A stretch of DNA of 64,000 nt from Psammoneis japonica (GCA_008632985.1 QPGO01000002.1:682001-746000); one strand, 5' to 3'; positions 5,564 to 35,001 are shown, numbered from the stretch's first letter. The notes: generated by a model from the letters alone, not told the origin. A program made the numbers and translations.

Positions 5564-5566
<3 letters not shown>

Positions 5567-5603: not shown

Positions 5604-5606
<3 letters not shown>

Positions 5607-6025: not shown

Positions 6026-8537
6026 TGTCAAAAACAACAACATCATCTCTTCTCATCTCCCAAAATCGATTGTTGAGATCTCTCTTCAGCTCTTCAGTTC
6101 ACAGCCACAATTTCTCCACAGGGAACATTGACAACCACTTCTGCCATTGCGTTGCAACCTTGAGCCATTGCTCTTGACAAGACAAGCTGCTTGGTTGCAT
6201 CTGCTTGGCCCTTGGCTGGCCCTGCAACTGCCAGTGGTCTCCCCTCACCTTGAGTGCACCTGGCTGGTCCATCCATTGCTCCTCAGCATTGTGCACAGCA
6301 TTTGACAATTTCTTTTCCATTGCCACAATCAAAAGGGAGAGCAAGCCACCTGACCACTGGGAAGAGCTCTGTTTGGAGAATGCAATTCAGATGATGTTGC
6401 TGGCAACAAAGAGAACACATCTGCTGTTTTTCTTCAGAATGACGATTGACTTGCTCCCACCAAACTCAGGCAGAAATGGCAACATGAAGAGTGCAAGCAA
6501 CTCATTGGGAGAACACATCATGTCAGCAACAGCCTGCTCCACCCAAATCTTTGAAGCCAAAAGCTCCAGTTGTCAAACCACCCCTGTCCACAAGTCCCCA
6601 CCACCACATGCTGCTGTCTGTGCAGCCACTGGGCTGCCAACCCCTGTTGGTGCTGCTTCATGTTGTGCCCTCTTGTTGATGCTCATGCAGCTGCTGAGGC
6701 TCCAGCTGCTGGAGCAGAGAAATTGCCAATTGCCAGTCTGAAATCTGGGCTGCCACAATCACGCCAAAATGATGAAAACTCTCCAAGGTCCATGAATGAT
6801 CTTGCCATCCTTGGATCAGGCGGGCATGCTCTTGGACAAATGTGGCACCAAATGCATGCACACATGCACGCACACAGTGTGCTCTGGAGCAGAGCAAACA
6901 CAGCTGGTGGCCGCTGCTGGGAGATGGAAGTCTCTGGGGTGGAGAGCCATGGGAGCATCGACTGCTTGCAAGGGCTTTCTTCACTTTCTTGAAGTGATGG
7001 CTGGGGACAACACTCTGGAGGAAGGAAAACCATTCTGTGCCAGAGAGGAAGTGGGGTCACTCAACACATGATTTGGGGTTTGCAATGGCAAAGGTCACTT
7101 TTCATTGCTCACATCAAATTCTGCACCACTGTGGTCAAAAATGAAAATGTTTCACAGCTGCAATGTTGATTTCATTCATCTTTCACTTGCTGCAAGCACA
7201 GTCAAACCCTCCTTTTTGCAACCTTGTGAGCAACTCAAGCAACAGGATGAAGAAACCTGTTTTAAATCACCGGATGCCATGTGGGATGTGGTGGGGGTCT
7301 CCTGCATTTGACCCGAGTGTCCTTTGATGACTGCCTGGCCTCAATTGGTGTGCTGTGCAAATTGTTGCAGTGTGGAGAAAACATCTGCCCTGTCAAGGTC
7401 ATTTGCAAGATCATGAGCTTGTCAATGCACTCAACTGTTGCAGCTGCAACCAGGACAACTCTCAGTTGAATGGCAAGAGCAAGACATGTTTTTCTCATTG
7501 CTCTCTTTGCATTTCCCGTGCTGATCTTGAATCGGGTGTGCAATGCTGGTTGGTCTTGGTTCTTTTGCAACAGGCAAGAGCAAAGGGGGGGGGGGGCATT
7601 CAGCATCATTGGAGGCAACCACAAGACACTTGGATTGGCTGTGGCCTGGGCCAATGTGAATCACAAAGTCAAATGTGGCAGCAAGCATGTTCATCATGGG
7701 ACCCCACAAATGTGGAGGGACCCTCATGTGCTCATGTGGAGCCCTGCGCGTGAATTTTTGCATGTGGTGCTGAAACACACAGCCTGCACATGCAAAAACT
7801 GGCACAGTTTCCATGACAAAAAATTGAAAAATGCCTGGTTAGTTCTCAAGATGGCTCTGGTGCAAAATCTGTGTGAACAGTCACCACACATTTACGCAGA
7901 ACTCTGCACATTTCTGGGTTGCGGGTCCCTGAGGGACCCACTGTGAATGTGGTGCAGCACGTGCAAGAATGTGTGTCATCTTCCATGGTGGGTGGCTTGG
8001 ACCAGCTGGGCCTGCAGGTGGGTTGGGGGACATCTCCAGCCAGCTGCTGGCTGAAAAAAATCTGTCCATCAGCACATCAGGGGTGCAAAAACTTTGACAT
8101 TTTGGATTTTCCAATTTTGATCCTGGATCAAGGGCATGTTTTGCCATGATGGAAGCTCCAGTGCACTGCCAACAATGTGCAGCAGACATTGCTGGGGCAA
8201 GTGCAAGATGCCAAGAGTTGAGCTTGATCCTTGTGGCTGTCTTTTGTGTCTTTGCTGTCTGTCAGAACTGGAAGTGGCTTGAGGAAAGAACCTGCTTCTG
8301 TGCGCTGTTTGCAACCATGCCATCACACCAGCCATCAAATTTGGAGAGTGCCAGCAACAAAAAGTCAAACAAGGAAAGGACAAAACAAAACCAAACTTCC
8401 ATGTTTAAAGTGCTGCTACGCTTCCACCCCGCAACTCCGGCAACAAGCTAACCCACACCCCCAGCACACGACCAGTGCGGCAGGAACACATGACAATTGG
8501 CCCGGATCGGCATCACCCAAAGGTGACGCCATGCCAA

Positions 8538-11500
8538 AGTAGCTTGTGACAGTTCTTGTTCCACATGCAGCCAAACGCTTGGCCTTTTTAACACTCGACT
8601 TGAACACAGGTTTGACCATGGCTAGCCAATTTCGAATGTGATGGGTAGAATGAGTGAGGTGTTCGTCAACTGAGTCAAACAGTTGTGCCCTGTCCTTTGC
8701 AAGATGTTCATCTGATCTCGAACAAACAGCCTGAACCTCTGCCTTGGCATCTCTCCACTGGGACGACTTCCTGGCATCTGAATCGTGGCCGTGAACATCG
8801 TCATCATGGGAATCCCACAGCTCCCACTGTTGCTCCCAAACACAATTGCCAACAGCAGCTGCCTGATCTGAACGCTTCTCTTTGTCCAAAAGATCCTGAT
8901 GCACTCCACTTGATGAAAAGACAAGCGAGCTGAGCCACATTCCACTCGCAAGAGAAGTGTCCGCTGAAGACATGTCTCCATCCAACAGCATCCTGGGAAC
9001 GGAACAAAGCCACTGCACTCCCATGAAGACCATCTGAGTGCATCATTTCCTCTCGAAACCAAGACTCAATGGATGAAATGATCAAGTCACAAATGGATGG
9101 CGAAGTGTGAATGTCGTTGCACTTTTTCCGCAGACCTTGTAAAAACTTTCTGCGCCATTCTTCGTCATGAGGACATCACAGAATGTGATCACGGTCTTCC
9201 ATGGGGTGGTGGCAATGAACACAACAGTCGGACCGTGCCGGATCATACCTGTGTACGATCTTGTCAGTGGGGGAGCAAGTCTTGGACCAACTTGACTGTG
9301 CTCACCTTGCGTCTGATGTTTCGTGACATCAATTTGGAGCGCACTTCCCAATTGACAGACTCGCAAACCACGTCTGACCAACCACACTTGTCTTTCATGC
9401 AGCCAATGAGCGCAGGACTGGATGCCTCGAAGCGGAGTGCAGGCTTGTAATTTGAGCTGACAGTGGCTTGTTGGACGACCAAATTTGCCAAGCAATGAGG
9501 TGTTCTTGGTGCCACCAGTGCATCCCCTGAGTGGTGACCATGATGTCGACCCGCCAACATGTCAGCGCGCATGTTTAGCTTGGCTGGTGACGAAAGAGAT
9601 TCAAATGGCACGTTGTTGTCTTGATGTCCTTTTACCCACTGAACTTCGACTTGCGTTCCGGAAGACTCACCAACAGAAAAGCTCGAAATGTCGTGAGCAG
9701 AACAACACATTTCGTGCAGCAAATCCCATTCTGCTGATGACGTGCCATCTTCCGCAGTGGTTGCCATTGCAGGGGCAGCTGAAGGAGACAAATCCTGCAA
9801 TGTTTCCAGCTCGGAAACTGAATCTGCTTGGTTGTCTCGCACTGAGAAGACTTGAAAACCCAAGTCGGCACGGACACACAAGTGTTGTTCGTCTGGTTCG
9901 TAGCATGCCAGGTGCGTCATTTGCATGTCCAAGGAGGAAACAACCCACTGCCCCAAAGGACCTTTGAGAGTTGTTGCATTTTCCACACACAACAGGGAAC
10001 AAAACCTCTTCCACTGCTTCCATGCACGAGCAGACGGGTGCTGTTGTTCCACTGGGTTCAACCTCAACACTCTGCCAACAAGAGACCGTTTGCCTTCCAA
10101 AGCACATCGATTGACAGACCGGCCGTCCGGGAGAGCAACATCCGATGCGGTGAGAATGTTCAGATACAATCTGCAATGGTTGACCCACCCAATCTTGCAA
10201 TTTGTAAAGATGCCCGAATCCAAGACCACATCCATGATGTGTTGATCGTTGTCCCTCTGCAACAGCAGGACGCCAGCATTGTCAAAGTCGATGCAAGCAT
10301 GCACTCTGGCAAGAAAAGATCGCAAGGACATGAACCATTTTGACTCAGCATGGGGCAGCATTGAAGTCACGTCACGAAGGAAGCTAACGCCAGCACCCAA
10401 ATGAAACTGCACCCAAGAGACGGCAATGAGAGATGAAGCCTGTGGTTGTCCCGATCCGTGCCAGTGTTGTAAGAACTGCAACACTTGGGCAACACCTTGC
10501 TCCACATCTAACGAACGAAAGCCTCCTCCTCCCAGGGAGCATGGCCTGAACAAAACATCGCGCTTTGTGTTTCAATTATATCTGCATTTTGCAACAATGG
10601 CACACACGGCCTTTTGTTGAATTTCCAGAAGTTCCTTGGGATCAAAATGTGCATTTGGGAGAACGCAGGTCATTGAAGACAAGTGGCAAGCAAAGCAGTG
10701 GGTCCATGCCTCATGCTGGTCAAGAGGACATGAGCAGAGGAACATTGCAATGTCGTTGCTTTTCTTCTTGAGAGCTGAAAATTGCGTCTTTTGGCTGCCA
10801 ATTGGAGCTTTGAAGTTTCCCAAGGTTTTGTGTGATGAACATGCAGATGGCTGTTTGCTCCGTCGACTGGTGGCCCTGTTGGCGGATGCAATCTTGATGA
10901 TGAGTTCATTGTCATGAGGCCGGAGGTGTGGTTCGCCGTCATCTGAAAACATCCATTCGATGGCATGAAAAGAGCACCCAGGCAGTTCCAGTTCGTGGCC
11001 TGCGGCGTTTAAGAGATCACACCACAATTGGTTGTCCTCCTGCATTTTGAGCGTGAGTTCAAGCATGCAAGGCTGAAGCGATGCTCGAAAATCATTGACT
11101 TGTTTGGATGTGTCATCTGCGCATCCTTGGCCAAACATTCTCATTGCCATCGTTCTGTCAGGAGTTTCAAAGAAGGCGCCATGAGTGTTGCAATCAAAAA
11201 CATCAAAAAGACTGTTGCACATCTGGCTCCAATCAAACGAAGATCTGCCACTGCCTTGCCCCATCCCGAGAATTGGCAACTCTTCAGAATGGGGGTGTGA
11301 TGTCGGAGACAATCTGAGGACAGTTTTCAACCAACAACATGCTTCATGAAGTGCAGTGTTGGCAACTTGGGTGACCTTCTTAGGCATGCCATTACTTTGG
11401 TTCTGGACGGCAACCAGAGCGGGGATGTTCCTGTCGTGACACGACGTACAATCATCATCGCTGTTGATGGCTGACTTGCGCGACACTTGACTGGTCTCAA

Positions 11501-13870
11501 GCATCAGTTCTTCAGGACAAACGGGAGTCTGGGCATTCTGGAAGGGACAAGTGCCGTAAACACCGGGGTCACACAACCTTTGATGTTCCATGTTTTGAGC
11601 TGGTGCTCTCCACTTTACACCTGTGACAAGCTGGAAATCGGCTTCGTAGATGTGAACAACACGCAACCGGTGAATTTTGGTGTTGCCGGGCTCCTTGAAT
11701 GTCATGACGTTGACCATGTCCTTCCAACGGTCAAAAGAACAACCCCATTGTAAGGCATGATTCAGAAGATTGAGGTGAATTTGGATCAAGGTTCATTGAA
11801 TGTTGTCCAATGGAACACAATCGGAATCGTCTTCTTGGTCCAACGCAGGGGCGTCCGAACATTGGTGAGGCACACACATGGCTTTCCAGTGTCCCAGATG
11901 CAACCCAGAACACAGGGATGTAGAAGTTGACTCCTTCCAGCTTTTGATCTTGCCCTCTAATTCTACCTCGGTTAAATGTTCCGACACCGAAACAGGGGAT
12001 CGGCATTTCAAACAGGCAATGAGTTGAGCTGTGGCATCGTTGAGAGAAGAAGTGTTGCAATTGCTGTCCAGCATGAGTTCCGCCACAACAGCATTGCCTT
12101 TGAATCCAAGGTCCACAGACAAGGGAGGAACAGCAGGAGGAGCACCATGTGCCTGCCCAAAATGCTTCTGGCTCCGCACACGAAGAGCAGTTGCAACGTC
12201 TTCTGGAGTGTCGAGTGTCATCCAATCGTCGCATTCCTTGGGATGCACATTCGGGTTCCAAGGGACTTGAATGCTGTCAATGCCGGTGTCCCATTCAGCC
12301 TTGCACGATTTGATCTTCTTGAAAAGTCCAACCATTTCTTCTGCTTTTTGTGCATTGCGAAGAATTGAAGCTTGTTTTCGGGACTGTTTGGTCCCGTCCA
12401 AATCGAGAGCTGCAATTTTGGCTGACATTTCCCGCTCACGATGCACGACACTGTCCGCTGCAATCTTCTTGCAATCTGTTTGAGCTTCTCGCAGGGCTGC
12501 TTGGCATTCTTGCAGTGTCTTGGGAATGACAAAGGATCCTTTGAGTTCATCACAAATCCATTGAATCTGGGATGCGCAATTGATCTTGGCGCGCATCATG
12601 GAAACTGTGCGAGAGAAAATACAAACACGATGACGAAGGTCTGCCAACTCTACAGACCAGTCGGGTTCACGATGATGCCTGCAACATTTGGCCGCCGCTA
12701 AAGAAAACTGTAAAAGGTCGCGATCCAATCTCTCTGCCAAGTCGTGATTGGGTTCGCTGAGTGCCAGGAGCTGTGCAGATCTTTCCAATGCAGAGCAACT
12801 CTCCAACACAGGACCGATGGCTTTCAAATGCGCCATGACCTGAGGTTTAGATGATGCTTGGACATCTCAAAAACATGCTTTGGGAAGATCAACCGCAGGG
12901 TTTCCAAACAATGCCATTGTGTCAAAGTCAACGTAATGCGCCCGGTGGTCGGAAGCAATGCGACACCCAAAGGCTTCGCACCCTCCCAGTCTGACAGCAG
13001 ATGAAGCTCCCGGCAAGGCTAGAATGAAGTCGAGGCGTTTTGATCCGCGGGTGTGCGTGGAGAAGTCAGTGTTTCCAATGATGTTGAAGAAGACGTCTGA
13101 CAAATTAAACCATTGCGCCAAGCTCGCCAAAGAATCCGCATCAAATTCGAAGTCCATGTTAAAATCGCCAAACAAGATCACTTCTCTGTTGGATTTGGCT
13201 GTGAACTCTTGGAGAATCCGAGATGAATCCGTGCAAAAGGCTTTGCGTGGGTCCACTGCTTTGGCTCCATTCTGTCAGAGGAGACATTGTTGCTGAGCAA
13301 ACGTGGCAGTTTTCCCTGGTTGGCGTTGGTTTTTGGCGCAAACTCTGCAGCACGAAACGAACACAACTTGTCGTCCATTGCGGCCATCGAATGCTTGAAT
13401 GGACCATCGCCCGAGGGGATCAGAAAGTTGGGACCTGTGCCGCGCAGACACAGCATTGCACGAGAAGAGAGCTGTTCCGCCAGGTTTATGTTGCGTTGAG
13501 AAGGGGTGGAACTGGTGGAGAAAGTGCCTCGGCCACGCAGCAGAGAATTGGAAACCGTGGACCTGCATGCTGAAAGAATGTCAAATTGTGTCATGTCCAA
13601 ACACACTTCCGATGTGCCAACAATGTCGGCTTGGATTTCATTGGCCACCTGGCAGCATTCGTTGATGTTGCCACCACGCTTGTCAAACTTGCATCCATTG
13701 GCATTGAAGGCGTGTGGTCGTGTGTGGTGTAATGACTTGGGGCGAAGGCTGTCGCCGACAGGTTCATTGGTTTTCAGGCGTGAAAAATCCATGCATCGAT
13801 CAGCCGGCGGATGGCAACTTTGTCCATTTAAAAGGGATTGCCACGCAGACACGTTTTTTGCAGGAGAGGG
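8538..13870 (-). pseudogene. LINE ORF2 (endonuclease, reverse transcriptase, RNase H), disrupted
   Basis: Consecutive minus-strand ORF fragments 13178-14203, 12867-13256, 11793-12836, 10572-11789 and 9264-10553 carry the domains in the expected order. Confidence 0.88.
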
Positions 13871-14081
13871 GTTTCCACTCATGATTGGGCCATGCTTCTC
13901 CAAAGAGAAGACTGGGGCTTGTAGCGAGGAAGTAAATTGGAACCACAATGGAGCAAGAAAGGTTGGTGCTTGCCAGTGCATTGGAAAACCCATGCAAGGG
14001 ACAGCAAAGATGTGCGTTGATGAATGTTGGGAGGGCGCCCAATGGTTTGTGGAGACGGAGGTGGCAAGATCCATCTCCATG

Positions 14082-15801
14082 CTAAAAATCCGAGTCTTTC
14101 CCATCATTGCTTTGGTTGGGAGTCTGATTTTGGTTTTGTCGCTTTCTCGTGGGACCAGGGGAAGGGGCTGACCGGGATGCTTGGAGCAACTGGATGATCT
14201 CATTCATCTGATCTTGCACACCTGACATTTTCTCCGAATGTTGTGATTGCGTGTTTTGCATTTCATTGGCATGTTCATCACGTAGTTCACGAAGGGCCTT
14301 TTCATGACGGGATTGCATTTGGGTCATTGTTCACTGGACCTCAGCCAATTGAACGGATGCAATTGAAGAGCTCGACAATGATTGAGCAATCTGAGAATGA
14401 GACGCCTGCGGAGACGCAATGCCAGGACAGCCGGTGCAACCACAACTTGGAGTTTGAAATGATGGTGGATTCGTGAACATTTGAGGAGGGATGGGATGGG
14501 CAGCTGACTCACCACGACCCTTGAAGAGCGGAGCGGCCAGTGCCTCTGCCAGACGAAGGGTTGGGCGGATGGATGGTGCAAGGAGCATCAACATTGGTCA
14601 AGGGAGACACATCTGAAAAGGTGAGAGACTCCAGGCTGCGGATGCCAGCCAACATGATTGATTTGCTGGCATCTGAAACTTTGTCAAGAACTCCGGAAAC
14701 CTGAGGAAGATCTTCAAATGGGGGAGTTGGGTGAGCTTCTTTAGGGAGATTTGGAGTTTCATTCAGAACACACGTTGAAATCTCAGCTTGGGCCTTTTTG
14801 AATTGAGCGCGGTGGACCAGGATGTTGTGTCTGCCAGTGGACAATGCGGAAGGGGAGGGAAAAATGTCAATTGTGCCCTGGATTGCTTCAATGTGATTCT
14901 CCAAGCAGAACATCATGTCCGCAGTCATGTGCAACAACGGCACGACGAAGGCATTGTTGTTGCGTTGGGCTTGCATTTTGACTGCATTGTAAAAGGCGAG
15001 TGGAGACACGCAACGGGTTTTTGCCACAAGGATGTGAGTCGGAAGCTTGTCAGATGCACACAAAAGGGTTTTTGCTGTGGTGCGACAGTCCTCTTGTTCA
15101 ACTTCAACCAAAAAGGTCGCCGCACAAATTGGCACTGAGGTTCTGTTGTCATCTGCTCAAACGGAAGTGGGAGCTGAGCGAAACTTTGGCATCTTGGTTT
15201 TTAAATCTCCAAGATCTTTGACAAACAACTTCGTAGCAGCATCAACGGGAGTGTGTTTTGATGCAGTTGCAATAAAATGTGCTGGACTGGCCGTGTCAAT
15301 GACAGATTCATTCCAACAATGACGCTTCAAACCCATGTTGTTTGCCTCCAAAACATTTTGAATGTTGGGGTGAGAACGAATGTCGCGTGGGGGCACTTTC
15401 GTGAGGATGCGGTGACACAAACGATGAGTGACGGGATGGTTCTCGCCACTGCGAGTTGTCGAAATCTGGAAGTGGCACTCATGTTGGAGAGCAGAAACCC
15501 ATTCGGCGACATTGACATTTGCAATTCTGGCATTGTTGTTGTCCAACACCTGAACTTCGTCATGGAACGTAAACAGGATCTGACTGAGAACTTGGAGATG
15601 AGAAGTCACGAGAGCCATTGGTTTGCAAGCAGCCTCTGGACCGCAAATGTCAAAGCAAACGGCAATCTCTTCATGTTGTTGTTCTTTTGGTTTTGACAAC
15701 GGTTTGAGAGAAGCTTGATCAACAGCAATGTCGTCAGCAATGGTTGCATCTTCATTTGCAGAAGTGGTGTTGCTGCCGTCAGCGGCGGAAGACGATGCCA
15801 T
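14082..15801 (-). pseudogene. LINE ORF1, disrupted
   Basis: Fragments 15157-15801, 14509-15135 and coiled-coil 14082-14327 lie immediately upstream of ORF2 on the same strand. Confidence 0.65.
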
Positions 15802-18800
15802 GGTGATCGGTGTTTCTACGGCAAGCCTGGCATTGAAAACATGCAGGTAAATTCAATGCCAACAAATGCAGAAAAGCAAACAAACAAGGACAGGACAGAA
15901 GAGAGCAAGGGCTGTTGATGAAGATTGGCTTGAGGCACATGAGATTCCATGAAGTGTTGTTGAGCCTCATGAGGTTGTTCACACATTCCGGCTGTGGCCA
16001 GTGAATTTGAGAAAGATGGGTGCATCAGATCAAAGAGACTGTGTGGGAAATGGATTGTTGGCAAATGTGATGCACAAGATGTCATTTTCTGAGAATCACC
16101 AACTTGAACCGCAGAAGCTCCAGCACATGCTGTCTGCCAATGCTGAGTTCCTTCCCTTGGCAGCTGATGAACAAAGCCATGTCAACTCCAATGTTTGGCT
16201 CTGTGCAGCTGTGATGCCGCTGTCATGTGCTTTGTCAGAAGGCAATGAGGAAGAGGGGCACTCAGATGTGCAGACTCCAAATAACCTGCTTCAACATGTG
16301 GAAATGTTGGTTCATGGATGCTTGGGAAGGGTTTTTTTTTTTGCAATGAGCACTGGTTGTGTGCCACGCCAAAACATCAACCTGAAAGATGCTGGACCAG
16401 CCCCAGGTTTTTGTTGCAGCCATCTGCCAAAATCTGACAGTCTGTGCAGTGGATCCAAAAAAGGGTGTTGGGCATGCTGCAAACATTCTGTCATTTCAAG
16501 TTCAAACAAGCCAACAAACACAGCTTTGTGAGCTCTCATCAAGGATGAGACCAGTCAAGTCTTGCAGCACACTTTCACGTGATCTTTGTAGAAGGGCAGC
16601 AGAGGCAATGGCTCAGCATGTTGATCTTGGAACTCACAAGCCTCCCATTTGTTCTGGGGACAATGTCAACACAAAGGATGGTCAGGGCAGTGCTGCTGAA
16701 CAGACAGCAATGCCATTGCAGGCACCTTTGATTGGTGAACTGCCCCACAATCAGGGTCCTCCACTCAATTGAAAGTGCACAGATTGGAGCAAATGGGTGA
16801 AGCCAAGCACTGATGATGAAGCACCAGCAGCATTCTTGCCAAGCAAAAAAGACAAACATGGAATTGGGGAAGTGGCACTGTCTGACTTTGCTGCCATTCT
16901 GCACAATCTTGACATGATGCCGTGGGGGGTTGAGGAGTGCAACAAATTGTGCTCTCCTGCATGTTTGTTTGTCACCACCAAGAAGATCCCATGTGTCTTT
17001 GGTGGCAGGTTGGCAACAAGCAAGACATTCAATGGTTTTGTTCCAGTTGGCAGGATCATGAAGAGCAGATTGTTGATGGGACAGTCCAAATCAATGCAGT
17101 GTGGAACAAGAGCCACACACATCCTTGTCCAATTCAAACATGACATTTGGGTCACAGGGAACTGCATGGCATCGTGGATGCATTGAAAATTGTCAAGCCA
17201 ACAATCAGATGGCAGCACATGAGAGTGCACTCTTGCAAGGCCTTGACATGCCTGCAGTTGAAAGGCCAATGTCCGCCAATTCTGCACTCTTTTTGGTGGA
17301 CGGTGCAATGGCAGAAATGGTGGGCTGGATGTTGGACAAAGATGCATCAAATGCTGTCTGAAAGCACAGCAAGTTGGTTGTTGTTCCTGGTCCTTTCCAT
17401 TGGAAGAATGACACTTTTAAAAAAGCCAGTCATTCAAATGAAGATTGGGCTGCACACATTGGAGATCAGCTTGCTCAAAAGGATGGGGAGAGTGCCTTGG
17501 AAGAAAATTTGTCATTTCTCATTGACTTCTCTGACCCAACCATCCCTGAAAAAAAATGTGCGCTGAAGCTTCAATGGTGGCAATTCTGGCTGCAGTCTGC
17601 TGGAGCATGAAGGTGTCAGGAAGGCAGCAAGCATCACCAGCAGATGCTCATAACTGGATGATGGAGCAAGCCACAGAAGTGAAGCCCTCAAACAATGAAC
17701 CTCATTTGAGTGCATTTTGATTGTCTCATCATGAGGCACTTCAAGCATTCATTCAGAAATGATCTGTGGGATTGTGGGGTTGATGCTTGAGTGCAGCTTG
17801 ATTGAGCATGCCAGTGCAGGCCATGATGCGTGGAACTCTTTGCTCCAGGATGGCTGGAGATCTCTTGCAAGATGCTGCAGTGTGCTGGTCCCAGACGGAG
17901 AAGGCAGTTGTAAAGATCAGTTGTTTGTGTTAAAGAGTGAACCAGAGGAGTGTGTTGAATGTGACACCATGCAAGAGAAACATGTCTGGGTCATTTGTGA
18001 GAGAATCAGTGATGAATTGAAAAGGGGGCATCAACCCAAAATGATTGAGGAAGCAACCCAAGCCACAGCCTTGCAAGCAAACAAGAGGCATGCAAAGCAT
18101 GCAATCAAGTGCCTTGGTTGAGAAGAAGAGGAGCTGTTGGAAACAAAAAAACCTTTGTTGGGCTGGACACAGAACAAATGGGCAACAAAGTCTTGTGTGC
18201 AAACATTTTGATTGTTGACAAGGAAAAGTTTTTCTTGCCGGGTCCATCAGAAAATGAAAAAAAATGACAAGTCTCTCATTTTGGCAAGAGACAGAGAGCT
18301 GTTGGATGCAAGACAACTTGATGCACAAAAGATTGGAGCAGAGAGGTGGAAAAGGTGCATTTCTAAATTTCTTGTCAAGAGTCAGCATGAGGTCCTTCAA
18401 AAAAGAAAAGGACATTGGCCTGGAAAGGATTCCAGCTGCAAGCTAGAAAATGGCCAACAAAATTGAGCAACGCCGGATCAGACGAGTGTCTGCTGACATT
18501 GAAGAGTTGAAGAAGAGCAGGACCAAAGAAGAGATTCATGACAAGTTTTCCATTTTAGAGCCATGTCTGAGTTGTGGTAAAAAGCGGAGGGCTCAAGCAG
18601 TCATTGATTTGACACCTGCAAAACTGAACGGAACAACCAAGATGTTCTTGGTTGGTCATCTTGTTCAATTGAGACAGACACTTTTTTGCCATTGGCCAGA
18701 ACTTGTTCCAACTTTGGGCAACGGCATCAGGGACAAACAGGCAGGAGATTCAACCACATCATGAGAGAGGGGACAGGAAATGCTGTGTGACAAGTTTTGT

Positions 18801-24640: not shown

Positions 24641-25161
24641 GCAAAAAGACAAAACAGCCAACCTCCTGTTCAGAGAGGAAGGAAGCCACGGTTCATGGTA
24701 AAAACTCACCCACATTGCCTTTGTTGGTTCTTTGTCGAGTTGCCGGCGGCATGACGTCGTCGGCAGTCGTTGTCGGTAGTCCGATGCGGTGTTGCGTTCG
24801 GTCGGATGCGTCTTGGAGAAGGAGGAGCGAGCGAGCGAGCGGTCGTTGAACTTTGGGGTTCGCTCCGGTGTTCGCGCGCGTCAGAATTCGAGTGACGCAC
24901 TCGGGCGACGTCACGCGCGCCGGAGCTCGCGGTCGGCGTGGAACGCACGGGTGTTTTTTCAGTACTGCTGACGTGTAGTACCGCGCACGTGGGATCGCAC
25001 GGGGGGTCAGCCCGGGGTCCGGTCAGTCCTGGGTCAGCGCGGTCAGCGCGGGGGAGTACTTTCGGGGATGTGGATGTCAAACGACACACAGTAACGCACC
25101 CGCGGCAGCGTCATTCGGCAGTCGTGCGCTCCTCTTCTGCAATAGAGCCTTCAGATTGGAA

Positions 25162-26697
25162 ATGTATATGGCAAAGACTGATCATAACATGGTAATGGGT
25201 GCCATGGCGGTGGTAACGGCGTTGCTCATCACGTGGGCAGTTTCTCCTATGGAGTCGGCAAAACCATCAGCGGATGATGGCATAATCATTCTTGAAGAAC
25301 GAGATGGCGTAGCTTCAGCGGCATCAGAGGAGGACAGCGATGACGAAGAAGAAGAGTTCACATGTCGACCAGACAACACAACTGATGAGCCTACTCCTGG
25401 TGAATCTTCTTGGACCCGACGAGTCCTCCCGGATGGAAGCGAGGAAGACGTTGGAGACCTTCGACTCGACGACATCAGTCGCCCGGAGGAAGAATGGCCA
25501 ATGATGAACCTTGATACTCCATATTTCTTTTTATCGCACACTGGACGAGATGGTGTGAAAGACGAGATTGCACGCCCGACAAAGTGGTTCCTCGAAAATG
25601 TATTGAATGTGAGAGCCTTTCTGGATGAAAAAGATATCAGTCCGGGACAAACGAAAACTGAAGCTCTCATCGCTCCAGCATACATGTGTACCCATGCACT
25701 GGCGATTCTTTGTCCTTCCTATCGTTCACGCCGTTTCTGCGTCCAGGAACTTAATACGTTTCTCAAACGTTGGCGAAACAAGGATGGAATACGCCTCATT
25801 CCTGCTCTGTGGCGCTTGGGCGATTTGGATGGATATCACCCAGATGTCGACGACCTCACTTGGGTGGCAGGACAGAAAACGAACTATCCAGTGGATTATA
25901 TGGTCCAGGTACTTTGGCCCGCCTTGATCAGTGAGCTCAATCGACCGGAAATGAGCCGGGTGGTCCTCGAAGATTGCTTGTGTCGATATGTTACAGCAAC
26001 TCGCGGAGAGAAAGAGATGCCACACTTTCTCGACCTTTTTGTGGAACGCAAAGGAAAAGATGGCGGTGGTGAGCCATCATCAAAGAAGGACAGCACTGTG
26101 AGCAAACAGTACCTTGGCAATCTCAACACTGCAGCGAATCGGATCAAAGATGCCATGAGCGTATTCAAAACTACAGGTTTTAGCGCTCAGGGAAGACTCA
26201 AGGACAACTTGGACGAGGCCAATTTGAAGATTGTGAACTACATGAAGCAGCTTGACCAGCAGAACCACACTATAGCTGATCTTCTGGTGCAACGCATGAT
26301 GCCCGAATTCGAGCGCTTATTGGACGAACTACTCAACAGAAAGAACATTTCAAACCATGGAGAAGGCTTTGGCAGGAACCACAACCGACCTGCTGAGCGC
26401 CGTAGCAAGTCGCCAAAAGATGTTATCCCTCCGGAGCTTGAGTGCCCATTGTCACTTGAGATCATGGAAGATCCAGTTATCCTTGTCCAATCTGGGATAA
26501 CATATGATCGGCGATTCATCTGCGAGTCCCTACTACACCACCCGAATCTTGATCCGTTTTTGAATGTTCGCTATACCGAAAAGTTGCAGTATGTGGAAAA
26601 TATCGCGGTACGGCAGTTGCTCACCCGCAAGCTGGGAGCGGCGGCGTATTGTCGCTTCGACGACAGCATGTTTCTCTCGGTCTACGAAGTGGTCTGA
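25162..26697 (+). CDS. Membrane-anchored TIR-domain / U-box protein
   Basis: N-terminal hydrophobic helix; TIR-like FFLSHTG..., AFLDEKDISPG, ALAILCPSY.SRRFCVQEL, LIPALW; coiled coil; U-box IPPELECPLSLEIMEDPVILVQSGITYDR. Intact and intronless, with normal TA/CG content. Confidence 0.85.
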   Translation: MYMAKTDHNMVMGAMAVVTALLITWAVSPMESAKPSADDGIIILEERDGVASAASEEDSDDEEEEFTCRPDNTTDEPTPGESSWTRRVLPDGSEEDVGDLRLDDISRPEEEWPMMNLDTPYFFLSHTGRDGVKDEIARPTKWFLENVLNVRAFLDEKDISPGQTKTEALIAPAYMCTHALAILCPSYRSRRFCVQELNTFLKRWRNKDGIRLIPALWRLGDLDGYHPDVDDLTWVAGQKTNYPVDYMVQVLWPALISELNRPEMSRVVLEDCLCRYVTATRGEKEMPHFLDLFVERKGKDGGGEPSSKKDSTVSKQYLGNLNTAANRIKDAMSVFKTTGFSAQGRLKDNLDEANLKIVNYMKQLDQQNHTIADLLVQRMMPEFERLLDELLNRKNISNHGEGFGRNHNRPAERRSKSPKDVIPPELECPLSLEIMEDPVILVQSGITYDRRFICESLLHHPNLDPFLNVRYTEKLQYVENIAVRQLLTRKLGAAAYCRFDDSMFLSVYEVV

Positions 26698-27019
26698 AAT
26701 CTTCATGACAATACTGAAAGAGGTGACAATGCGCCTGGGGATGGAAGCTGTGAATAAGTCAAGGTATACTTATTGGACTTTGCTTTGTATGCTCTGCAAA
26801 AAAGAGAATAAGGAACCCCCGCCTAGTTGTGTCAACCATCATGCGGGTCTAGCTAGTAGACTATCTTCGTTACCAGGTTGAGAACGGCTACTGTAGGTTC
26901 CGTCGCTACTACGTAGTATGTCAAGCTGAGGGAATGCGTACACGTACGTAAAGCGCAAAATTACGACATCAACGAAAAGTTTCTCTGCCCTCTCTCCTGT
27001 CCCCGCTAACTAGCCTCCC

Positions 27020-30000
27020 TCTTCACTCCTTCTCCCGGCGCTTCCAGAGCTCTCGCCTTGCTTCTGATGCCTGCGTCATTGCCGCCCAGCGCAAACTCCA
27101 TCTCCCCATCTTTCCTCCTTCCCTTGTTGGCACGCCCTGTTGCCTGTGGTCACGCCATCCTCGACGCTTGTGGTGATCATGCCTTCTCTTGCCGGCAAGG
27201 CCACAAATCTAAACTCTCTGATGGCCTCTGGGACACTCTCTTTGTGGCCCAGACCTTGGGGCCCCTTGCCCAGCTCTGTCATTCCTCCAATGATGTTCAC
27301 CTTGAGCCAGTGAATCTGCTTCCCAACCATCTGCTTCTCTGCCAATGTTGGCATTTCTGTGCCGCCCCCCAGCTTCTCTTTCTGCTCCCTCCTGCTGCCA
27401 CTGCCTTTCCATCAATGTCACCACTTCCCCAGCTCCTTTTTGCCCTCCTCCTGCTGGTCTGCCCACTCCTTCTCCTGTTTCAACTGAGGCACACCATTTG
27501 AGCATGAGACCAAAGTTCCTTGGACCTTCTGCTTCCTCCACTGATGGATCCCATGTTGTTGGTCTCAGCTTCTTCTCTTTGGCTCTTCACTCTCCTCCAC
27601 CTGCTCCCAGTGCAAGCCTCCCTGCCCCTCAAGTTCTGACATTTGCCACTCCAATGCTTCCTGTTCTGCCTTTCTCTGTGCCCCAACATCTCCATCTGTC
27701 TTTCTTCCTTCTGCTGATTTTGCAAAGAACAGCCTTTCCAGCAACCCTTTTGGCAGCCAGCACATGCCACTCCACCTCTCCTTGTCCCAGTGGGCCATCC
27801 AAAAACTTGGCAGATTTCATGTGCTGGTTTGTCCAGTCAAAAAGTCTCTGCAATTGCTCAACGTTCCTTCACAAGAGCAGTTTCATCACCAAAGCCAACT
27901 TTGTGGTGCAGATTCAGAGCATTGCTGCATCCATTGTGGAAACTCTTTTCCTCACTCACATTGTGCTTGAAAGAGGCAACAACCACTGCTGGTGCAGCTG
28001 GTCTTTTCTGAATGCTTGCGACCAAAGACATTTGAACAAGTGGCAAACAATCTTTTGCAAGTGGTCAACACCGACGCAAAAGTTAAGTCTGGAAATGCAG
28101 CAAAGAACATGCTGCAGGAAGGCCGGGGTGCTGTCAGGGACCTTGTGAAAGACAAGGCCAGTGGTTGGAAAAAACCGCCCTTTGTTCTGAGCAGGTGGAA
28201 GATCTGATGTGCAGCACATTTTTGAAGACTTGCAAAAATCTCAATTGCCTGAAGATGAAAAATTTGGCAATCATCTGCTTGAGGGTTTGCAACTTGATGT
28301 GCAGGCACCCAATGCCAAAGGAAAGAGAAAAGTTTGCCTCTTCCACGTGCATTGGTGTGTCTGGGAAGTGTCAAAATCAGAGCATTTCTGGATCTGCCAA
28401 AGGTTGGCATTTTGTCCTTCCCCAGCACCTGGCTGCATTTCTGTTTTCACACCCTTTCGTTGCTGTCATTGTTGCTTGAAATCAAGATCTCTTGCTCCCT
28501 TCAAAAGAAAGAAGGACATGGAAGAGCCCTCTCATCTTTGCTCTTGGGATCCTGACATCCGTCCCAATGCCAAATTTCCCCCACTTGGTCAACTTCTGTG
28601 GGACCTGGATGATGATGACATTGATGTTTTGCCTGTTGCTGGTCATGAGTCCAGCCCCAGCACCGCAGTTTGTCATCACACAACAAGTCCACCCTCCATT
28701 TCTTTGAACGACTGGGAAAATCATTTCCCGCCAGAGCACCAATGTCCCATCCCAAGCTTGTGAGAAATTGCCAGTGTCACTTCTTGTGTTCATGTGTTTT
28801 GCAATGGAGTGGACAAAGACGGCAAAATTGATGAGGACACAAATGACCGTGAGCTCATTCACTCCCTGTTTGATTTCCACTTGCTGTTGGATCTCTGTTC
28901 ATTGTTGAAACATTCCTTTGAGTCAGCCCAGCCTCTCCCCAATCCAATTTGGCATTCTCGCGAATTGAGCGTGGTTCCTCCATGAGCAACAAAGACTTCA
29001 TCTCATCAAACCACACTCCATTCCAATGACAAGCTGTTTGAAAAGCGTTTTTTCAGGGCTGAAAGTTCAATCTCAGCACATTGGCTCATTGTTGGATCCA
29101 ACAGTGCACCAGAGCTGTCTCCTTTGAATGGCTTTGGCATGTTTGATGTGGCGGATGATGTGGAATTTGTTCTTCAAGCAAAGGCCATGTTGGCTGGCAC
29201 CTTTGATTGCATGCAGTGCTTTCAGGATGAAACGCACATTGAATGCTTTGATCTGCCATTTTCCTGCAGCAACAAGGAGCAGACTAAAAAGTTTGGCCAA
29301 CCAGCATGGGAGAAACTCGGTGCTGAATGCTGCAAAAACAAGCTCTGCATGGTCCAGCTAAAAAAAAAATGAGCCAAGGTGGCAGGACATGTGAGCACAA
29401 AGATGACTCAGACTGCTGCTGGTTCATGTGCAATGACACTGGATGTCTTTGCTTGTTTGGCAAGGATTGAAATGTTGGCCAACAGCCGTGGCAAGGTGGG
29501 AAATTGCCAACAAATTGGAACATCAGTTCTTGTGGCATGGGTTGGCATTTTTGCATGTGCCATCAACTGCAATTGCAGCCGGTTCATCAGGGATTGCTCA
29601 GGTCCAGCTCGTCTCCACAAGGGTGATTTTTCCTGTTGCTGCCCTGACAATTTCTTCCTTGATGATGGTTGCCCATGAGAGTCAGTCTCCTTGCAATCAA
29701 AGGGTGGCACAATGCAGAATGCCATGGTGTTCCCTGCTTTGGTTGCACAGAATCTTTGGCTGTCTGCAGCCAAGACCCCCACTTGCAACATTCAGGATGA
29801 ATTGGGCATTTGCGGTTGTGTGCAGCTGGCAACAATGGCTGGCCACCACACAGGCTTAAAACGCTTTTTCTGCACCTGCACCAAACACTCAATCCATCCC
29901 CAGAAATGGCTGCTCTTGTTTGTTTCTGCAATGCCACGACTGTTTTTGGAATGGCTGCTGGGGACATTGGCATGACCCTTGTTGCATGAACCCAAGCAAG

Positions 30001-33000
30001 TGTGATTTCATCACCATTCACTGTGATGATGTCCATGACAAGGACATTGTTGATGATGAAGTTGTTGGTTGTTCTCTGGTGGATGACAGGAAACACTGGC
30101 ACACTTCCATTGATAAATCAAGCAAAATTCCTCCTGGCCAGAGGCAATGAATCAAAGCCCCAAACAATGATGATTGCCAGTGGGTGACATCCAGTGAAGA
30201 GCTGGAAAACTTGGTTGCAAACCAAGTGATGGAGATGATGACAACAGATGTGATTGCCCTGCTGAAGTGGATCAATGCTGGCACAGGCACTCCAAACTGC
30301 CATCATTTCTAAATTGAAAAAAAAACTTTGCAAAATGTGTGCTGGTTGGCCTCATGAAACCAACATCAACAAATTCTGTGCAACAATCATTCTGCAGATG
30401 CTCATTGGATGTGGTGCAATTGTTTTGAGACACAAAGATCTGAAAAACTAAGTTTGTCCCATGGTGAAGCTTGGCACCTCAAAGCAACTCACTCACCTTC
30501 CAAACAATGAAAGGGCCCAAGTGTCAGAGAGATTCTTGTTCAAAATTTTGGCATCCCAGAGACAACTGCAAGGAGTGCATCACCTGTGAAAGCCACAAGA
30601 AGAGAGCCAAAGAACTGGTCAAGGAACATTTTGTAAAAAGTCAACATCTCTTTCCCTCACAGACATGGATGGTGTTCCTGACATCAATCGCTGTGGTGGG
30701 TGCCACTGTGAGACAACACCAGTGCTTTTAGAATCACCTGTGCCAATGGCCCCAGTGTGGTGCAGGATTTTGATGTTGCCAATGATTCCATCCAGCATGG
30801 AGACCCTGCCAAGGGAACAATTTTGAGGCCAGCAGGATGGGGGTGAGCAGACACAGGACCACAGTGCCGATGACCAGGCTGCTTGCTTTGGGGGCACTGA
30901 CGCTGATGCTGATGCTGCCAACAGCAACGTGTGTGGAATTGGCAACACTCACGAGGATGATTTCAGCAATGATGTTGGGGCCAGTGGGATTGGGGACAAT
31001 CCTGGGGATGCTTTTACTTTGGAGGAAGCATCAACCAATGAAGAACGATGTCACAAAGCAGACACACCAGCCATGACAACACACGGTTCCCTGGTGCAGG
31101 TTGCAAGGTGCTGATCTTGACAATGCTGCACAGGAGGTGCAGCGCCAAGGACAATTGGTTTTGGCAAAAGAAGCAATTGTTCAACCACCACCCAAGACCA
31201 ATGTCAAGGTCTTTTTCTTGTGCATGATGCAGGCAGAAGACATCGACATGGTGTCACACCACCAAAACATTCTTCATGACACCAATGGTCATTTGTTTGG
31301 CTGCAATGCAAAGCTGCAATCAGACGCAGCCAGGCCACTGGCATGTCAGCAATTGTTGCATGACTGCAGTCAATCTGAAGCCAAAGAGTGCCAATTTTGC
31401 ACAGTCTCCCTTGGCAACAGTCATGACAAACAACATGCAAACTGCAATCTTTGTGGCCCACACTTTGTGGATGAGGGTTGGTTGAGTGACAAATTTGGCA
31501 AAAAGGTTCTTCAGCCAGACAATGCCAGATTCGGCATTGGCGATGAAAGAAGGTGGAGCCTTGTTTGTTCTTTTTAACATTGAGACTTTTCTTGGTTGTG
31601 CAGAGCACAAAGACAGAATCAACAAAGTGCTCCAGATGATTGTGCAGTTTCATGTGTTCCCAGTCTCCCAGTTTGAGTTGCTTTCCACTTTTGAAGGAAA
31701 CAGATGCTTTGGCTCCATTTCTTCCTTGTTGAATTGTCCAGCAACCCTGACGCTGGGGTGGTCAAGGATGCAATCATCATTTGCACCCCACAACAGAAAT
31801 GCAAGGTTGTCCGTGTGATGCTCCATTCTTTTGCAGCCCACCAATGTTCCATCAGAGTGTGCAACATTCTCAACAAGGGCATGCTGGCTGCATGCACAAT
31901 GCAGTCATGCCAACATCCACACATGCAGAAGATTTGATGGTGAATGGGAACTCCCTTTGCTTGTTCCACCCACTTGCACAGGTCTCTGAGTGTCTTCATT
32001 CTGTCCCAGACAAACAAAGGCCATTCATCAGCTGCCAGATTCCTTGGGATGAATTTCAATGGATGATGCATTGACATGACAAAGTTGCTTTCTGCCTTGT
32101 TGTTCATCATTGTGTTGATGCTGTTTGTGTCTGACATGTGTGTTGAAGTGCAGTGAAGCAGAGATGTGACCTGATGCATGCAGTGGGTTGTCTGGGTGGA
32201 TGGTTGGATGGCTGTGATGTGATGACTGTCATTGCAGATGGCAACATGAGCAGCAACGCAGATGTTTCATGTCACATGCCCAAATGACTGGCATGGATGT
32301 TGACCCAGTGGACAACTCAGTTGTGCTTGGGGCAGCAGTGGGGGGGGGGAGTGAACCATGGGCAAAGAATCAAATTGAAGGGGGGGATGACATCCATTGA
32401 CACAAACAAAAAAAATCATTGGAGGTGAGTCAACTGATTGGATTGCACACCAGATCATTGAGCGGGTTGAGCAGAAAACTGATGCTTGGGTCATGATGTT
32501 TGCACAAGCAGGGAAATCCAGGCTGCAATGGCAAACAGCCAGGAAGCAATGTGTGCACAACCTGTCTGCACCAGGAGGAAACAAACCACACAAAAAACAT
32601 TGCAAAGAAATGGAAACCATGGTGCAGAGGCAGATCAGTCCAGCAGAGCAGATGGACAACAATGAGAAGGTGGGCAGAGACACAGTCAAGGTGAGAGAGC
32701 ATGTCAAAGAAAAGGTGTTTCCACATGTCATGTTCATGTTTGATGCAAAGCAATTGGAGGGGGAACAGGCATGCTGCAAATGCCAACAAATGTGGGCTGA
32801 TGCTGATGGATGGAGTGCCAGCGGACCTGCTGGGAGTGGAGCAAAAAACACACCTGTGTTTCCTGTAGATGAAAGTGAAACAAAAGAGATTGTGCCAGGA
32901 TTGGCTGGCTGTGAAGAGATCCAATGTGTGTCAGTCACAGCAGGACAAATTTCACAGCAAGTGCTGTTGCTGAGGATTGTCATGGATGAGGGGACAACAA

Positions 33001-34920
33001 ACAAATGTCAGGAACATGTTGTTGCTGATGATGCAGTGCTTTGTGCACTGCTGCAACAAGAACAACTGCATCTTGCCTTTGCTGGAATGACCCCAAGTTC
33101 AATTGTTGAATCCAACATTGCAGACACAGTGTTCTGCAACCATTTGTTGTGACTGGCCATGGGAGATGTTTGTTGGAAGAAGAGCCTCTCAGACAATGCA
33201 AGGTTGGGCAAGTCATGTGCCAAGGCATTTGCCCACATGCTCCTGAAGAACAATGTTTTGGTGCACAAGTGTTTGATGTCAGACTGCAATGTGGAGCTCA
33301 ACAACCAAGGAAAACCAGCCAGAAGGGAAGAATTGTGTGAGATCATGATGCCCACCAATGTCACTGTTGCCAAACAAGAAGATGCAAATGGATCAAGCTC
33401 ATTTGCCATTTTGGAAAAAGATCCTCAAGAGCCCACAGAGCAATGTGCAGTCAAGGAAATGGCAAACACATTCAAGGAGGTGTGTGGGAGAAGTCCCTTG
33501 ACAGCTGCAATGAATGCATCAAGAAGGTGAGAATGGAGCAAACAACACAGGAGCAATTGTCTGTTTTGATGCAGGTCACAAGACCAAGCCAGAAAGCAAG
33601 AACAAGAACCTGCCCAGCAGGGAACGTGGCACTGAGAAGAGACAGTGCATGAGACACCTGAAGCACTTCACACAGTGGGGGAATTCCAAGAACAGGGTGG
33701 AAGAAGGTGAGCCCAGGAGACAGTGCAAGATGCCAAGGAAGTGCAAAGGATGGTCACCAAGAGCAAACAAGTTTTTTTGAGAAACTGGTGAAGGAAATCA
33801 AACAAGACATTGCAAGCAAATGACTGGGCTGATGGGAGGATTTGCACAGGAAGATTGTGGCGGGGTGCAACAAGAAAGTGGAGGAAGACAATGATGGTTC
33901 GGGGGGACAAGGGTGACCGCATGGTGAGCTGTGCCAAGACATGCAAACTGGAGTTGACACCAGTTTGGCAGACAATGTGTGAAGTGCAGTTGACGGCATG
34001 GCATTGCAAACAACATTGCAGAGTGAATCTAAATTGCAAAACTGAGTTCAAGTGTGCCAACTGGCAAGCAAATTGGAAGGACACAGCACAAAATGGCCAG
34101 TTGGGAAATGAGTCACCCTCCATCCATTGTCAGTCAGTTGTCAAAAGTCATCAAATTGAACATCATGCTTGAGTTGACTGCCTGCAATGCAACAAACTTG
34201 TTGAGGGACTTTTGTTCATTCTCAAGCCACAGTTGTTTGTCACAAGTCACAAACAACTGTGGTTCATGATTGATCTGACTTGTTTGGTCACAAATGAATT
34301 GACATGCTCGTGCTCATGCTCACACATGTTGGGACAGACTGAGGCCTGGTCATCTGCGGATGCAAGGATTCATTGGTTGGGGCCCCTGGTGTGCACTCTT
34401 CTGCTGCTGCAGGTGCTTCTGTGCCCCCCTCTGCTGTTCCCCTCCACTCTCAACAGGCTCCTCAACTGTGTGCTCATTTTGAAAGAAGAGTGGCATCATG
34501 ATGAAATTTTTGTTTTCTGTGCTTCACATGTGACAGGATTTTGTTTCTTTTGAGTGCTGCAATGCTCTGTTCCACACACCATCGGCGATGTGCTGCTCTG
34601 ACTTTTTGTCAGAAAAAAAGCCAAACTTCAAAATTGCCTTTCACTTGACAGAGTTTTGAACACCGGTGTGTTCTGACACATCAAAGAGTCTCTTTCAACT
34701 TGCACTCTGACGTGACCATTTGCGCTGTTTTTGATTCGAACACACTTTGAAGATCCAAGAACAATGCGGCGCAGGCGGAAATTGCTGGTGCAGGGAGGAG
34801 TGCACACATGCAGTGCTGCTGGTGTGACACAGAATGATGATGATTGATGGTTTCAACCGCAGTGATGCTGTCAAGAGTTGTCATCTCCTGCCATGAATGC
34901 ATGCATCATTTTTTAGCAAG
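27020..34920. other. TpA/CpG-depleted, hypermutated repeat domain II
   Basis: Same composition as domain I; rare surviving TA, mostly in TTA/TAA. Confidence 0.9.
27058..27450 (+). mobile_element. Remnant C-terminus of a restriction-like-endonuclease (CRE-type) non-LTR retrotransposon
   Basis: Zn-finger-like ACG..LDACGDHAFSC...K..LSDGLWD followed by a degenerate PA(D)VG-like segment; heavily decayed. Confidence 0.5.
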
Positions 34921-35001
34921 TCTCTAACCGTCCAAAGTCGTCGGTTTTGCGGCCGAAACTTTCGGTTTTGGGCATGCTTGCTTTTCTGCCAGAGCGATCC
35001 G

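Follow-up and report, generated by a model that had tools for sequence, protein, structure and literature searches.

Two delimited blocks of repeat-rich DNA in the genome of the diatom Psammoneis japonica have lost nearly all TpA dinucleotides (TA), which were replaced by TG or CA. The blocks lie in a stretch of 64,000 nucleotides (GCA_008632985.1, QPGO01000002.1:682001-746000; hereinafter, the window, with positions counted from its first letter). The changes are real substitutions that were acquired after the affected sequences arrived at this locus; they are specific to TpA, affect both strands about equally, and spare a gene island as well as an unlinked paralog of one of the affected sequences. 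Comparison with paralogs and homologs suggests that, probably, a local, targeted process replaces A:T by G:C at TpA, on either strand, within these delimited, repeat-rich and presumably silenced blocks, approaching completion, beside a slower decay of CpG (CG).

Across positions 6026-34920, which an earlier interpretation made from the sequence alone (hereinafter, the sequence-only reading) had described as a single domain of TA erasure, 186 TA are present compared with 1892 expected from base composition (observed/expected ratio (o/e) 0.10). CG is depleted as well (662 versus 1718; o/e 0.39), and CA (2941 versus 1767; 1.66) and TG (3087 versus 1840; 1.68) are in excess, in agreement with the convergence of both depleted steps on TG and CA noted in that reading. 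Its counts proved exact: TA is absent from 6026-7262 (80 expected by computation) and from 18580-20164 (107 expected) and occurs 22 times in 15900-23350 (514 expected). The flanks (1-6025 and 34921-64000) have ordinary TA, as it had also held, with TA o/e of 0.62 and 0.60 and CG o/e of 0.95 and 1.01, respectively; the GC content inside 6026-34920 (0.488) is not raised relative to the flanks (0.476-0.493). The loss of TA thus stands, but the unity of the domain does not: when the borders are read from a 500-bp o/e profile together with the list of every TA and CG position, there are two blocks (Table 1) separated by a normal island at 24500-27000, and the TA-poor state extends to about 35400. 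The two blocks contain 105 TA in 26476 positions and the flanks 1404 in 34280; at the flank frequency, about 1085 would be expected in the blocks, a tenfold deficit (binomial p printed as 0). TA o/e is below 0.25 in 104 of the 253 1-kb segments scored along the window. The o/e values of the four pyrimidine-purine steps add up to about 3.8-4.0, in the blocks and outside alike, which fits conversion of TA and CG into TG and CA.

One segment of block 1 has a counterpart outside the blocks. In the self-comparison of the window, 20485-21774 aligns with 2201-3451 at 80.7% nucleotide identity; in purine/pyrimidine letters, the same pair is 93.8% identical over 1303 columns, so that nearly all differences between the paralogs are transitions. 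The pair comprises the 3' part of a prenylcysteine-lyase gene (open reading frame (ORF) 2149-2682 of the normal copy matches the Pfam family Prenylcys_lyase, E 1.3e-11), the end of an ORF convergent to it, and the intergenic DNA. The block copy therefore arose by duplication of host sequence at the DNA level and not by retro-copying. Judging by the alignment, the block copy is the derived member, and its unlinked partner at 2193-3453 is untouched. Among the 60 TA of the normal copy that align without gaps, 28 read CA, 22 TG, and 4 TA in the block copy. The CG decay signature is present as well: 54 of the 67 CG of the normal copy changed, 29 to CA and 25 to TG, and 9 are retained. Altogether, the pair differs by 207 substitutions, comprising 31 TA>CA, 24 TA>TG, 30 CG>CA, 27 CG>TG, 61 other transitions, and 34 transversions. 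Outside TpA, A and T rarely changed: AA>AG was found at 6 of 91 sites, GA>GG at 3 of 78, and CA>CG at 0 of 86, compared with TA>TG at 22 of 60, and TT>CT, TC>CC, and TG>CG were found at 4 of 85, 5 of 90, and 2 of 94, respectively. Context-independent A>G change, which the sequence-only reading had named as an observation that would tell against it, was thus not seen. The five tyrosine codons of the prenylcysteine-lyase gene read TGC, CAT, CAC, TAT, and CAT in the block copy, the frame of which no longer gives the Pfam match. TA>TG and TA>CA are interspersed along the pair, without strand-coordinated runs (37 runs versus 28 expected), which rules out strand-coordinated patches of the kind expected from a processive single-strand deaminase.

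The second well-aligned part of block 1 is an element resembling long interspersed nuclear elements (LINE-like), with a full-length ORF2 on the minus strand. Read from 13801 to 8515, ORF2 aligns with residues 8-1933 of a homolog of 1934 amino acids (P0001), with a few frameshifts and three in-frame stops; 2252 homologs were detected at E<=0.001 in a representative protein library. Its endonuclease region (12870-13274, minus strand) matches Exo_endo_phos (E 2.9e-4) and Endonuclease-reverse transcriptase (E 1.1e-3), both under the curated cut-offs, and the homologs P0001 and P0012 exceed the endonuclease cut-off (27.7 and 29.5 bits versus 24.5). Pfam models of reverse transcriptase (RT) found no match in the ORFs of the window or in the intact homologs, and a profile of the RT-like region produced one chance-level match among PDB sequences; the family consensus contains the stretches GQGSGNSP and FVDD, which we read as putative RT motifs. 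The open frames upstream of ORF2 have no family match, and neither 8260-8560 nor 15800-16120 shows a poly(A)-type end. The summed depth of contigs from sequencing run X1 is 80-250 over the body of the element and 1440-1960 over 7669-9002, compared with about 35 for single-copy parts; the element is present in many copies, with the 3' ends being the most abundant, as for a non-LTR (long terminal repeat) retrotransposon. In one X1 contig, 8320 is connected directly to 16046, with 7725 bases left out, which coincides with the changes in CG o/e on either side of the LINE-like unit. This joint may come from a host-repeat copy that lacks the insertion, in which case the element would be nested and younger; the shorter side of the joint is 20 letters only.

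To assess the substitutions in ORF2, columns were called conserved when 60% or more of the full-length homologs in the alignment had the same residue, with 34 homologs queried and at least 10 aligned at each column. The 21 conserved tyrosine columns read Cys in 9 cases, His in 7, Tyr in 4, and Phe in 1, with the codons TGC/TGT and CAC/CAT for Cys and His, respectively. The control columns mostly retained their residue (Trp 21/22, Cys 6/6, Asp 25/28, Leu 45/53; pooled, 117/134), so the loss of tyrosine is highly significant (Fisher p 4e-10), and a second alignment, of 60 homologs over the central ORF, has 4 His, 4 Cys, and 2 Tyr in 10 tyrosine columns. Conserved Ile reads Val in 7 of 17 columns and conserved Asn reads Asp in 4 of 12, which fits A>G at a first codon base preceded by T. 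Of the 27 columns with conserved Arg, 22 of them with CGN-type codons, eight contain Gln, His, Cys, or stop instead. The balance between Cys and His indicates that both strands were mutated in the element.

This balance bears on a different origin of the substitutions, namely, editing of the RNA or cDNA before integration, by an ADAR-like A-to-I activity on double-stranded retroelement RNA, with subsequent fixation by reverse transcription. The best-identified element is indeed a retroelement, and ADAR favours U 5' of the edited A (as stated in bioRxiv 10.64898/2026.01.13.699255). However, the strands are balanced in the paralog pair (24 versus 31) as well as in the LINE-like element, the hypermutated gene copy is a DNA-level duplicate of two convergent gene ends, and the TA-less state is continuous over unrelated elements with common borders. 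To our knowledge, ADARs are known from animals only, and we consider this origin very improbable.

Transposon origin of the TA-less DNA, as claimed in the sequence-only reading, is borne out by sequence for 8515-15852; the remaining block DNA is multi-copy by depth in run X1, and one piece of it is the host gene fragment. An exact-seed repeat finder detected only a 32-bp tandem repeat in the blocks and no LTR pairs, and a purine/pyrimidine-recoded self-comparison of the window returned the paralog pair and no further internal repeats. The block ORFs at 19506-20438 (minus strand) and 27306-28145 (plus strand) have no homologs at E<=0.001 among proteins of near length. Pfam scans of block ORFs (31; about 134-137; 10 at E<=10), which covered all but the short ORFs (70-149 amino acids) of 24572-35645, yielded only the weak endonuclease match.

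The sequence is reproduced in run X1, the sole public run found to contain the stretch, which includes a share of 0.91 of the words sampled from 16000-24000; no RNA run is listed as containing it. At a depth of 30-37, X1 contigs about 1 kb long match 17619-18633, 19192-20133, 20127-21148, 21120-22067, 22213-23281, and 23817-24929 with 0 differences. Reads with normal TA, which the sequence-only reading had listed among the observations that would count against it, were not seen: at a depth of about 35, X1 has the same TA-less sequence, with the platform not on record. A sequencing or assembly artefact, with G or C called in place of a modified base at TpA, could account for the random choice between TG and CA at each site without strand runs, through conflicting strand calls, and the only run with the stretch may be the data from which the assembly was made. 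Nevertheless, clean k-mer contigs with flank-like depth that run through dozens of former TA sites do not sit easily with strand-conflicting miscalls, which would break contigs; the blocks also contain indels, transversions, and frameshifts typical of old DNA; and the same type of mutation arose de novo in Illumina data from the chlorarachniophyte Bigelowiella natans, according to the preprint (bioRxiv 10.64898/2026.01.13.699255). An artefact is, in our estimate, hardly credible.

Other copies of the block repeats are also represented in X1, where 435 of the 770 contigs that align to the window are only 90-95% alike. These copies differ from the window by 215 transitions and 45 transversions; five adjacent TG<->CA double differences appear among 40 listed differences of the 260, and some sites have CG or TA in one copy and TG or CA in the other. 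Such differences are as would be expected if one ancestral TA or CG decayed independently in each copy. Together with the paralog pair and the tyrosine columns of the LINE-like element, they support a second, TpA-specific A:T>G:C process apart from CpG decay, as the sequence-only reading had postulated. Within 5001-25000, contigs of two further runs from the same sample (X2 and X3) match 5001-6334 and 7669-8335 only.

TA and CG were not lost together. TA and CG o/e are about 0.1 and 0.6, respectively, in the LINE-like unit (about 8500-15900), compared with about 0.03 and 0.1 in the DNA around it, and 17 of the 21 tyrosine columns of ORF2 were lost versus 8 of the 27 Arg columns changed. The left edge of block 1 is abrupt, at the end of an insert of plastid DNA, and the left edge of block 2 is abrupt for TA and CG alike (27011-27363), whereas on the right, CG is ordinary again 0.8-1.3 kb before TA in both blocks. 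These differences in borders and rates indicate two processes, of which TA loss is the faster and the farther-reaching one. Most simply, the CG loss is deamination of 5-methylcytosine (5mC) at CpG, with methylation presumed here; diatom methylation is chiefly at CpG (PMC5124317). Such deamination, as in methylated diatom transposons, accounts for CG>TG/CA in the blocks but cannot remove TA, and its footprint here is smaller and slower than that of the TA loss.

The same contrast argues against a single ADAT2-like deaminase of dual specificity, acting on A and C in DNA and causing both kinds of change. This possibility gains some appeal from the fact that both palindromic pyrimidine-purine steps end as TG/CA in shared blocks, and the ADAT2 enzymes of amphioxus and Trypanosoma act on A and C, as cited in the B. 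natans preprint (bioRxiv 10.64898/2026.01.13.699255). However, the unequal ratios in the LINE-like unit and the border zones with ordinary CG and almost no TA do not fit one enzyme, nor do five related metagenomic loci with CpG decay without TA loss (L068, L075, L076, L071, and L072: CG o/e 0.40-0.56, TG+CA 1.28-1.45, and ordinary TA, 0.51-0.62); in addition, the B. natans spectrum, as given in the preprint, is almost only A:T>G:C. A dual deaminase is, accordingly, quite unlikely.

TG and CA counts are balanced in each kilobase of the blocks. The 105 surviving TA are unevenly distributed with respect to the 3' base: strand-symmetrised survival relative to the flanks is 0.167 for A, 0.089 for G, 0.055 for C, and 0.018 for T (chi-square p 1.5e-16 for top-strand counts), a skew that is not accounted for by the supply of CA/TG one transition away. 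In the paralog pair, TAA changed to TG once and to CA 8 times, and TAT changed to TG 11 times and to CA 7 times (p 0.019). Survival and outcomes combined indicate that A in T-A-T is the best target and A in T-A-A the worst, and the order of preference in the loss is TAT > TAC > TAG > TAA.

Relatives of the LINE-like element show that the family is, by this comparison, not natively TA-poor. Among the best 80 of 242 related metagenome stretches, a selection that favours intact copies, TA o/e is 0.39-0.85, and none of the 1764 1-kb segments has TA o/e below 0.25; a TA-free consensus of the transposon, the third observation that the sequence-only reading would have taken as adverse, was not seen. 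These data also bear on the notion that the blocks reflect native composition, selection against TA, a TA-poor foreign donor, or GC-biased gene conversion, for which nothing specific speaks beyond the mildly low TA genome-wide (o/e 0.6). The host gene fragment and the LINE-like element both lost TA after arrival and the block sequences are pseudogenised, so we assign this group of explanations a negligible probability; GC-biased conversion, in particular, is ruled out by the unraised GC content and the rarity of A>G outside TpA. Similar rewriting may have occurred in other public assemblies: three homologs from JGI/ENA contigs (P0107, P0122, and P0147) contain less than 0.8% tyrosine, compared with a median of 3.58% among the 150 best representative homologs, and have His or Cys at conserved tyrosine columns.

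Table 1. Coordinates of the TA-less blocks and associated features in the window
Feature	Coordinates	Strand	Description
TA-less block 1	6026..24500		TA o/e 0.00-0.24 per 500 bp; TG+CA o/e 1.3-1.9
TA-less block 2	27200..35400		TA ordinary again only from about 35420
Normal island between the blocks	24500..27011	+	TA o/e 0.4-0.96; CG o/e about 1
Border zone 1	23650..24960		CG density ordinary; TA only at 23819, 24093, 24457, 24699, 24777
Border zone 2	34583..35400		CG ordinary; 5 TA only
32-bp tandem repeat, 4.4 copies	23369..23508		Within block 1
Full-length ORF2 of the LINE-like element	8515..13801	-	AP-type endonuclease, then RT-like region
Upstream open frames, possible ORF1	14512..15852	-	In the CG-retaining unit shared with ORF2; CG step at about 16000
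Normal paralog	2193..3453	+	Outside the blocks; ordinary TA and CG
Hypermutated DNA-level copy	20477..21776	+	In block 1; from self-comparison with 2193-3453
psbA (photosystem II D1) fragment, 246 bp of plastid DNA	5780..6025	-	Adjoins block 1

The island between the blocks contains an intact ORF of 572 codons (24979-26697, plus strand) with TIR and U-box domains and ordinary TA and CG, including a CpG-dense 5' region at 24600-25130. The combination of TIR and U-box is an immune-type architecture, and this is the sole gene spared between the two erased blocks. The psbA fragment next to block 1 has ordinary TA and matches a plastid contig of run X2 without differences; such plastid contigs diverge from the window beyond both of its ends; one X1 contig (5925-7596) spans the right junction. 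The fragment is either a very young nuclear insert of plastid DNA or a local misjoin.

The flanks consist of ordinary genes, which include those for DnaJ, phosphofructokinase, ENTH, DENN, CrcB, 2'-5' RNA ligase, RCC1, ricin-B lectin, ubiquitin, and PUB proteins; at 41217-43990 (plus strand), a protein kinase with cyclic-nucleotide-binding and EF-hand domains is split between two frames that overlap, owing to an intron or a frameshift. The five best PDB matches of the psbA fragment are D1 chains, presumably from diatom photosystem II entries. The best named matches of the phosphofructokinase ORF (37632-39506) are from diatoms, with Asterionellopsis first at 70%, followed by Nitzschia, Epithemia, Fistulifera, Attheya, Cyclotella, Seminavis, Discostella, and Chaetoceros; two plant proteins match at 48-50%. 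The psbA and phosphofructokinase matches indicate that the window is from a diatom, as the sequence-only reading had assumed, and not from Bigelowiella. Among the window ORFs scanned, there is no deaminase. An intergenic segment at 55000-55500 has the opposite skew (TA o/e 1.80, TG+CA 0.53) and is rich in CTAG, TAGAG, and CTATCT, with no tandem array found by TRF; the flanks also contain tandem repeats of 171 bp (x2, at 22-365) and 76 bp (x4, at 45286-45599).

The closest known counterpart of the TA-less blocks is TpA hypermutation in B. natans, described in 2026 (Mettrop et al., bioRxiv 10.64898/2026.01.13.699255). According to that preprint, 231 of the 302 nuclear single-nucleotide mutations in mutation-accumulation lines fell in two integrated viral regions and, with a single exception, were A>G or T>C changes located at TpA, a rate of about 6e-7 per site per generation; the footprint extended to transposon-like genes, and an ADAT2-like DNA adenine deaminase was proposed. 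There, as here, only TpA is affected, TpG and CpA are both produced, pointing to both strands, and the changes are confined to delimited foreign or selfish regions with ordinary neighbouring genes. Moreover, 'Endonuclease-reverse transcriptase' genes are enriched among the TpA-poor genes of B. natans, and a LINE-like element is affected in the window. Unlike B. natans, a chlorarachniophyte (Rhizaria), the host here is a diatom (Stramenopiles); TA o/e of 0.03-0.1 is near saturation, compared with 0.45 reported for the region of B. natans derived from nucleocytoplasmic large DNA viruses (NCLDV); CpG decay runs alongside, and a host gene fragment is affected. The text of the preprint mentions neither CpG nor diatoms; the effect of the 3' neighbour is measured here, and the supplement of the preprint may hold flanking-base data. 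No viral families (NCLDV, virophage) are among the Pfam matches in the window, for 134 of the 225 listed ORFs of at least 70 amino acids and 13 longer ones beyond 24550.

The TpA steps in the blocks were changed to TG or CA on either strand, perhaps by a TadA/ADAT-like deaminase that acts on DNA and converts adenine to hypoxanthine, with targeting that might depend on chromatin state or small RNA; the second, slower process, most simply deamination of 5mC at CpG, turned CG into TG/CA over a slightly smaller footprint. The natural target of TadA and ADAT2-ADAT3, A34, comes after U33. This order matches the T-A context here, and such enzymes are proposed as candidates in B. natans (Mettrop et al.). 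The system would then be of the same kind as in B. natans. A further step, which we regard as possible but doubtful, is that diatoms have a chromatin- or RNA-guided base-editing defence that erases TpA from both strands of silenced selfish DNA, homologous to that of Bigelowiella, and that this is an old counterpart of repeat-induced point mutation (RIP) by adenine deamination, shared across stramenopiles, alveolates, and Rhizaria (SAR) or even more widely.

The symmetric footprint is, however, silent on which base of the pair is attacked. An enzyme of the TET/JBP type might modify T at TpA to 5-hydroxymethyluracil (5hmU) or a further oxidised base that mispairs with G and results in T>C. Dinoflagellates provide a precedent within SAR: 5hmU replaces T preferentially in TA and TC, is enriched in repeats, and is linked to transposon silencing (PMC11572971). 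This is a modification, not a heritable change, and TC, the other preferred context of dinoflagellate 5hmU, is unaffected here, with TC>CC not raised in the paralog pair. On the thymine route, 5hmU or its oxidation products would also have to miscode at a useful rate. We know of no such modification in diatoms, and this route appears unlikely.

Several points weigh against the proposed targeted process. Sequence alone cannot separate adenine deamination from a thymine-directed route, which leaves an identical footprint, so that the term 'adenine-directed' in the sequence-only reading claims too much, and its wording of 'silencing' likewise goes beyond the support. The direction of change is read from outgroups and function, not from observed new mutations. 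By sequence, an origin was found for 8515-15852 and 20477-21776, and most other block DNA is without an identified one. Run X1 may come from the assembly's own sample, its platform not being on record, in which case the read support would not be independent. The plastid insert, with about 17 TA, is untouched, and the process is inactive there now or is not simply spreading. Finally, the TA-less signature occurs in none of the best 80 of the 242 related loci, and this sample is no guide to how widespread the signature is.

Even with these reservations, the TpA-directed process that we consider probable differs from each of the other known systems. RIP of ascomycete fungi likewise involves dinucleotide-specific transitions on both strands, to saturation, in repeat or selfish DNA with sharp borders, with destroyed reading frames and skewed dinucleotide indices. 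Unlike here, where TpA is depleted to 0.10 and the GC content is unchanged, RIP creates TpA by C>T at CpA and raises AT; RIP also mutates both duplicates, whereas 2193-3453 keeps ordinary TA and CG and its Pfam match. ADAR hyper-editing and APOBEC3 similarly produce clustered deaminase-type transitions that cripple selfish elements, but they act on RNA or on one cDNA strand and are strand-asymmetric, whereas here the changes are equal on both strands and extend to DNA with no history of retro-copying. Besides the B. natans preprint, full-text searches found no report of TA>TG/CA hypermutation, and none for diatoms; the accessible portions of PMC4504042, PMC5124317, and PMC2806351 contain nothing on TA loss. 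The sequence-only reading knew of no description of such a system in diatoms; these searches likewise found none for diatoms, but the preprint now describes one in a chlorarachniophyte. The blocks appear to extend a kind of system described only in 2026 to a second major lineage, where the loss is nearly saturated, and the new details are the decoupling from CpG decay, the sharp and unequal borders, the spared gene island and unlinked paralog, and the 3'-neighbour preference.

Targeted hypermutation as a defence is established for cytosine (RIP and APOBEC) but not for adenine in cellular DNA, where the B. natans preprint, on a single alga and with no enzyme identified, is the one report. If the proposed process is real, it is not confined to one species, and the search for the enzyme gains a wider comparative set, that is, genes common to species with TA-less blocks and absent from others; the sequence preference and the border structure constrain any candidate mechanism, and, if the defence interpretation is true, the preference for TAT > TAC > TAG > TAA should identify the enzyme. 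The process would also be fast, with about 80-90% of TA gone from an element in which about 60% of CpG and the greater part of the reading frame remain. In diatoms, annotation of repeats from protein-level similarity will miss such elements, in which nearly all tyrosines and many A-initial codons are rewritten; about 19 kb of the blocks is left without any Pfam match. The sparing of a 2.5-kb gene island between two erased blocks bears on how heterochromatin borders are set.

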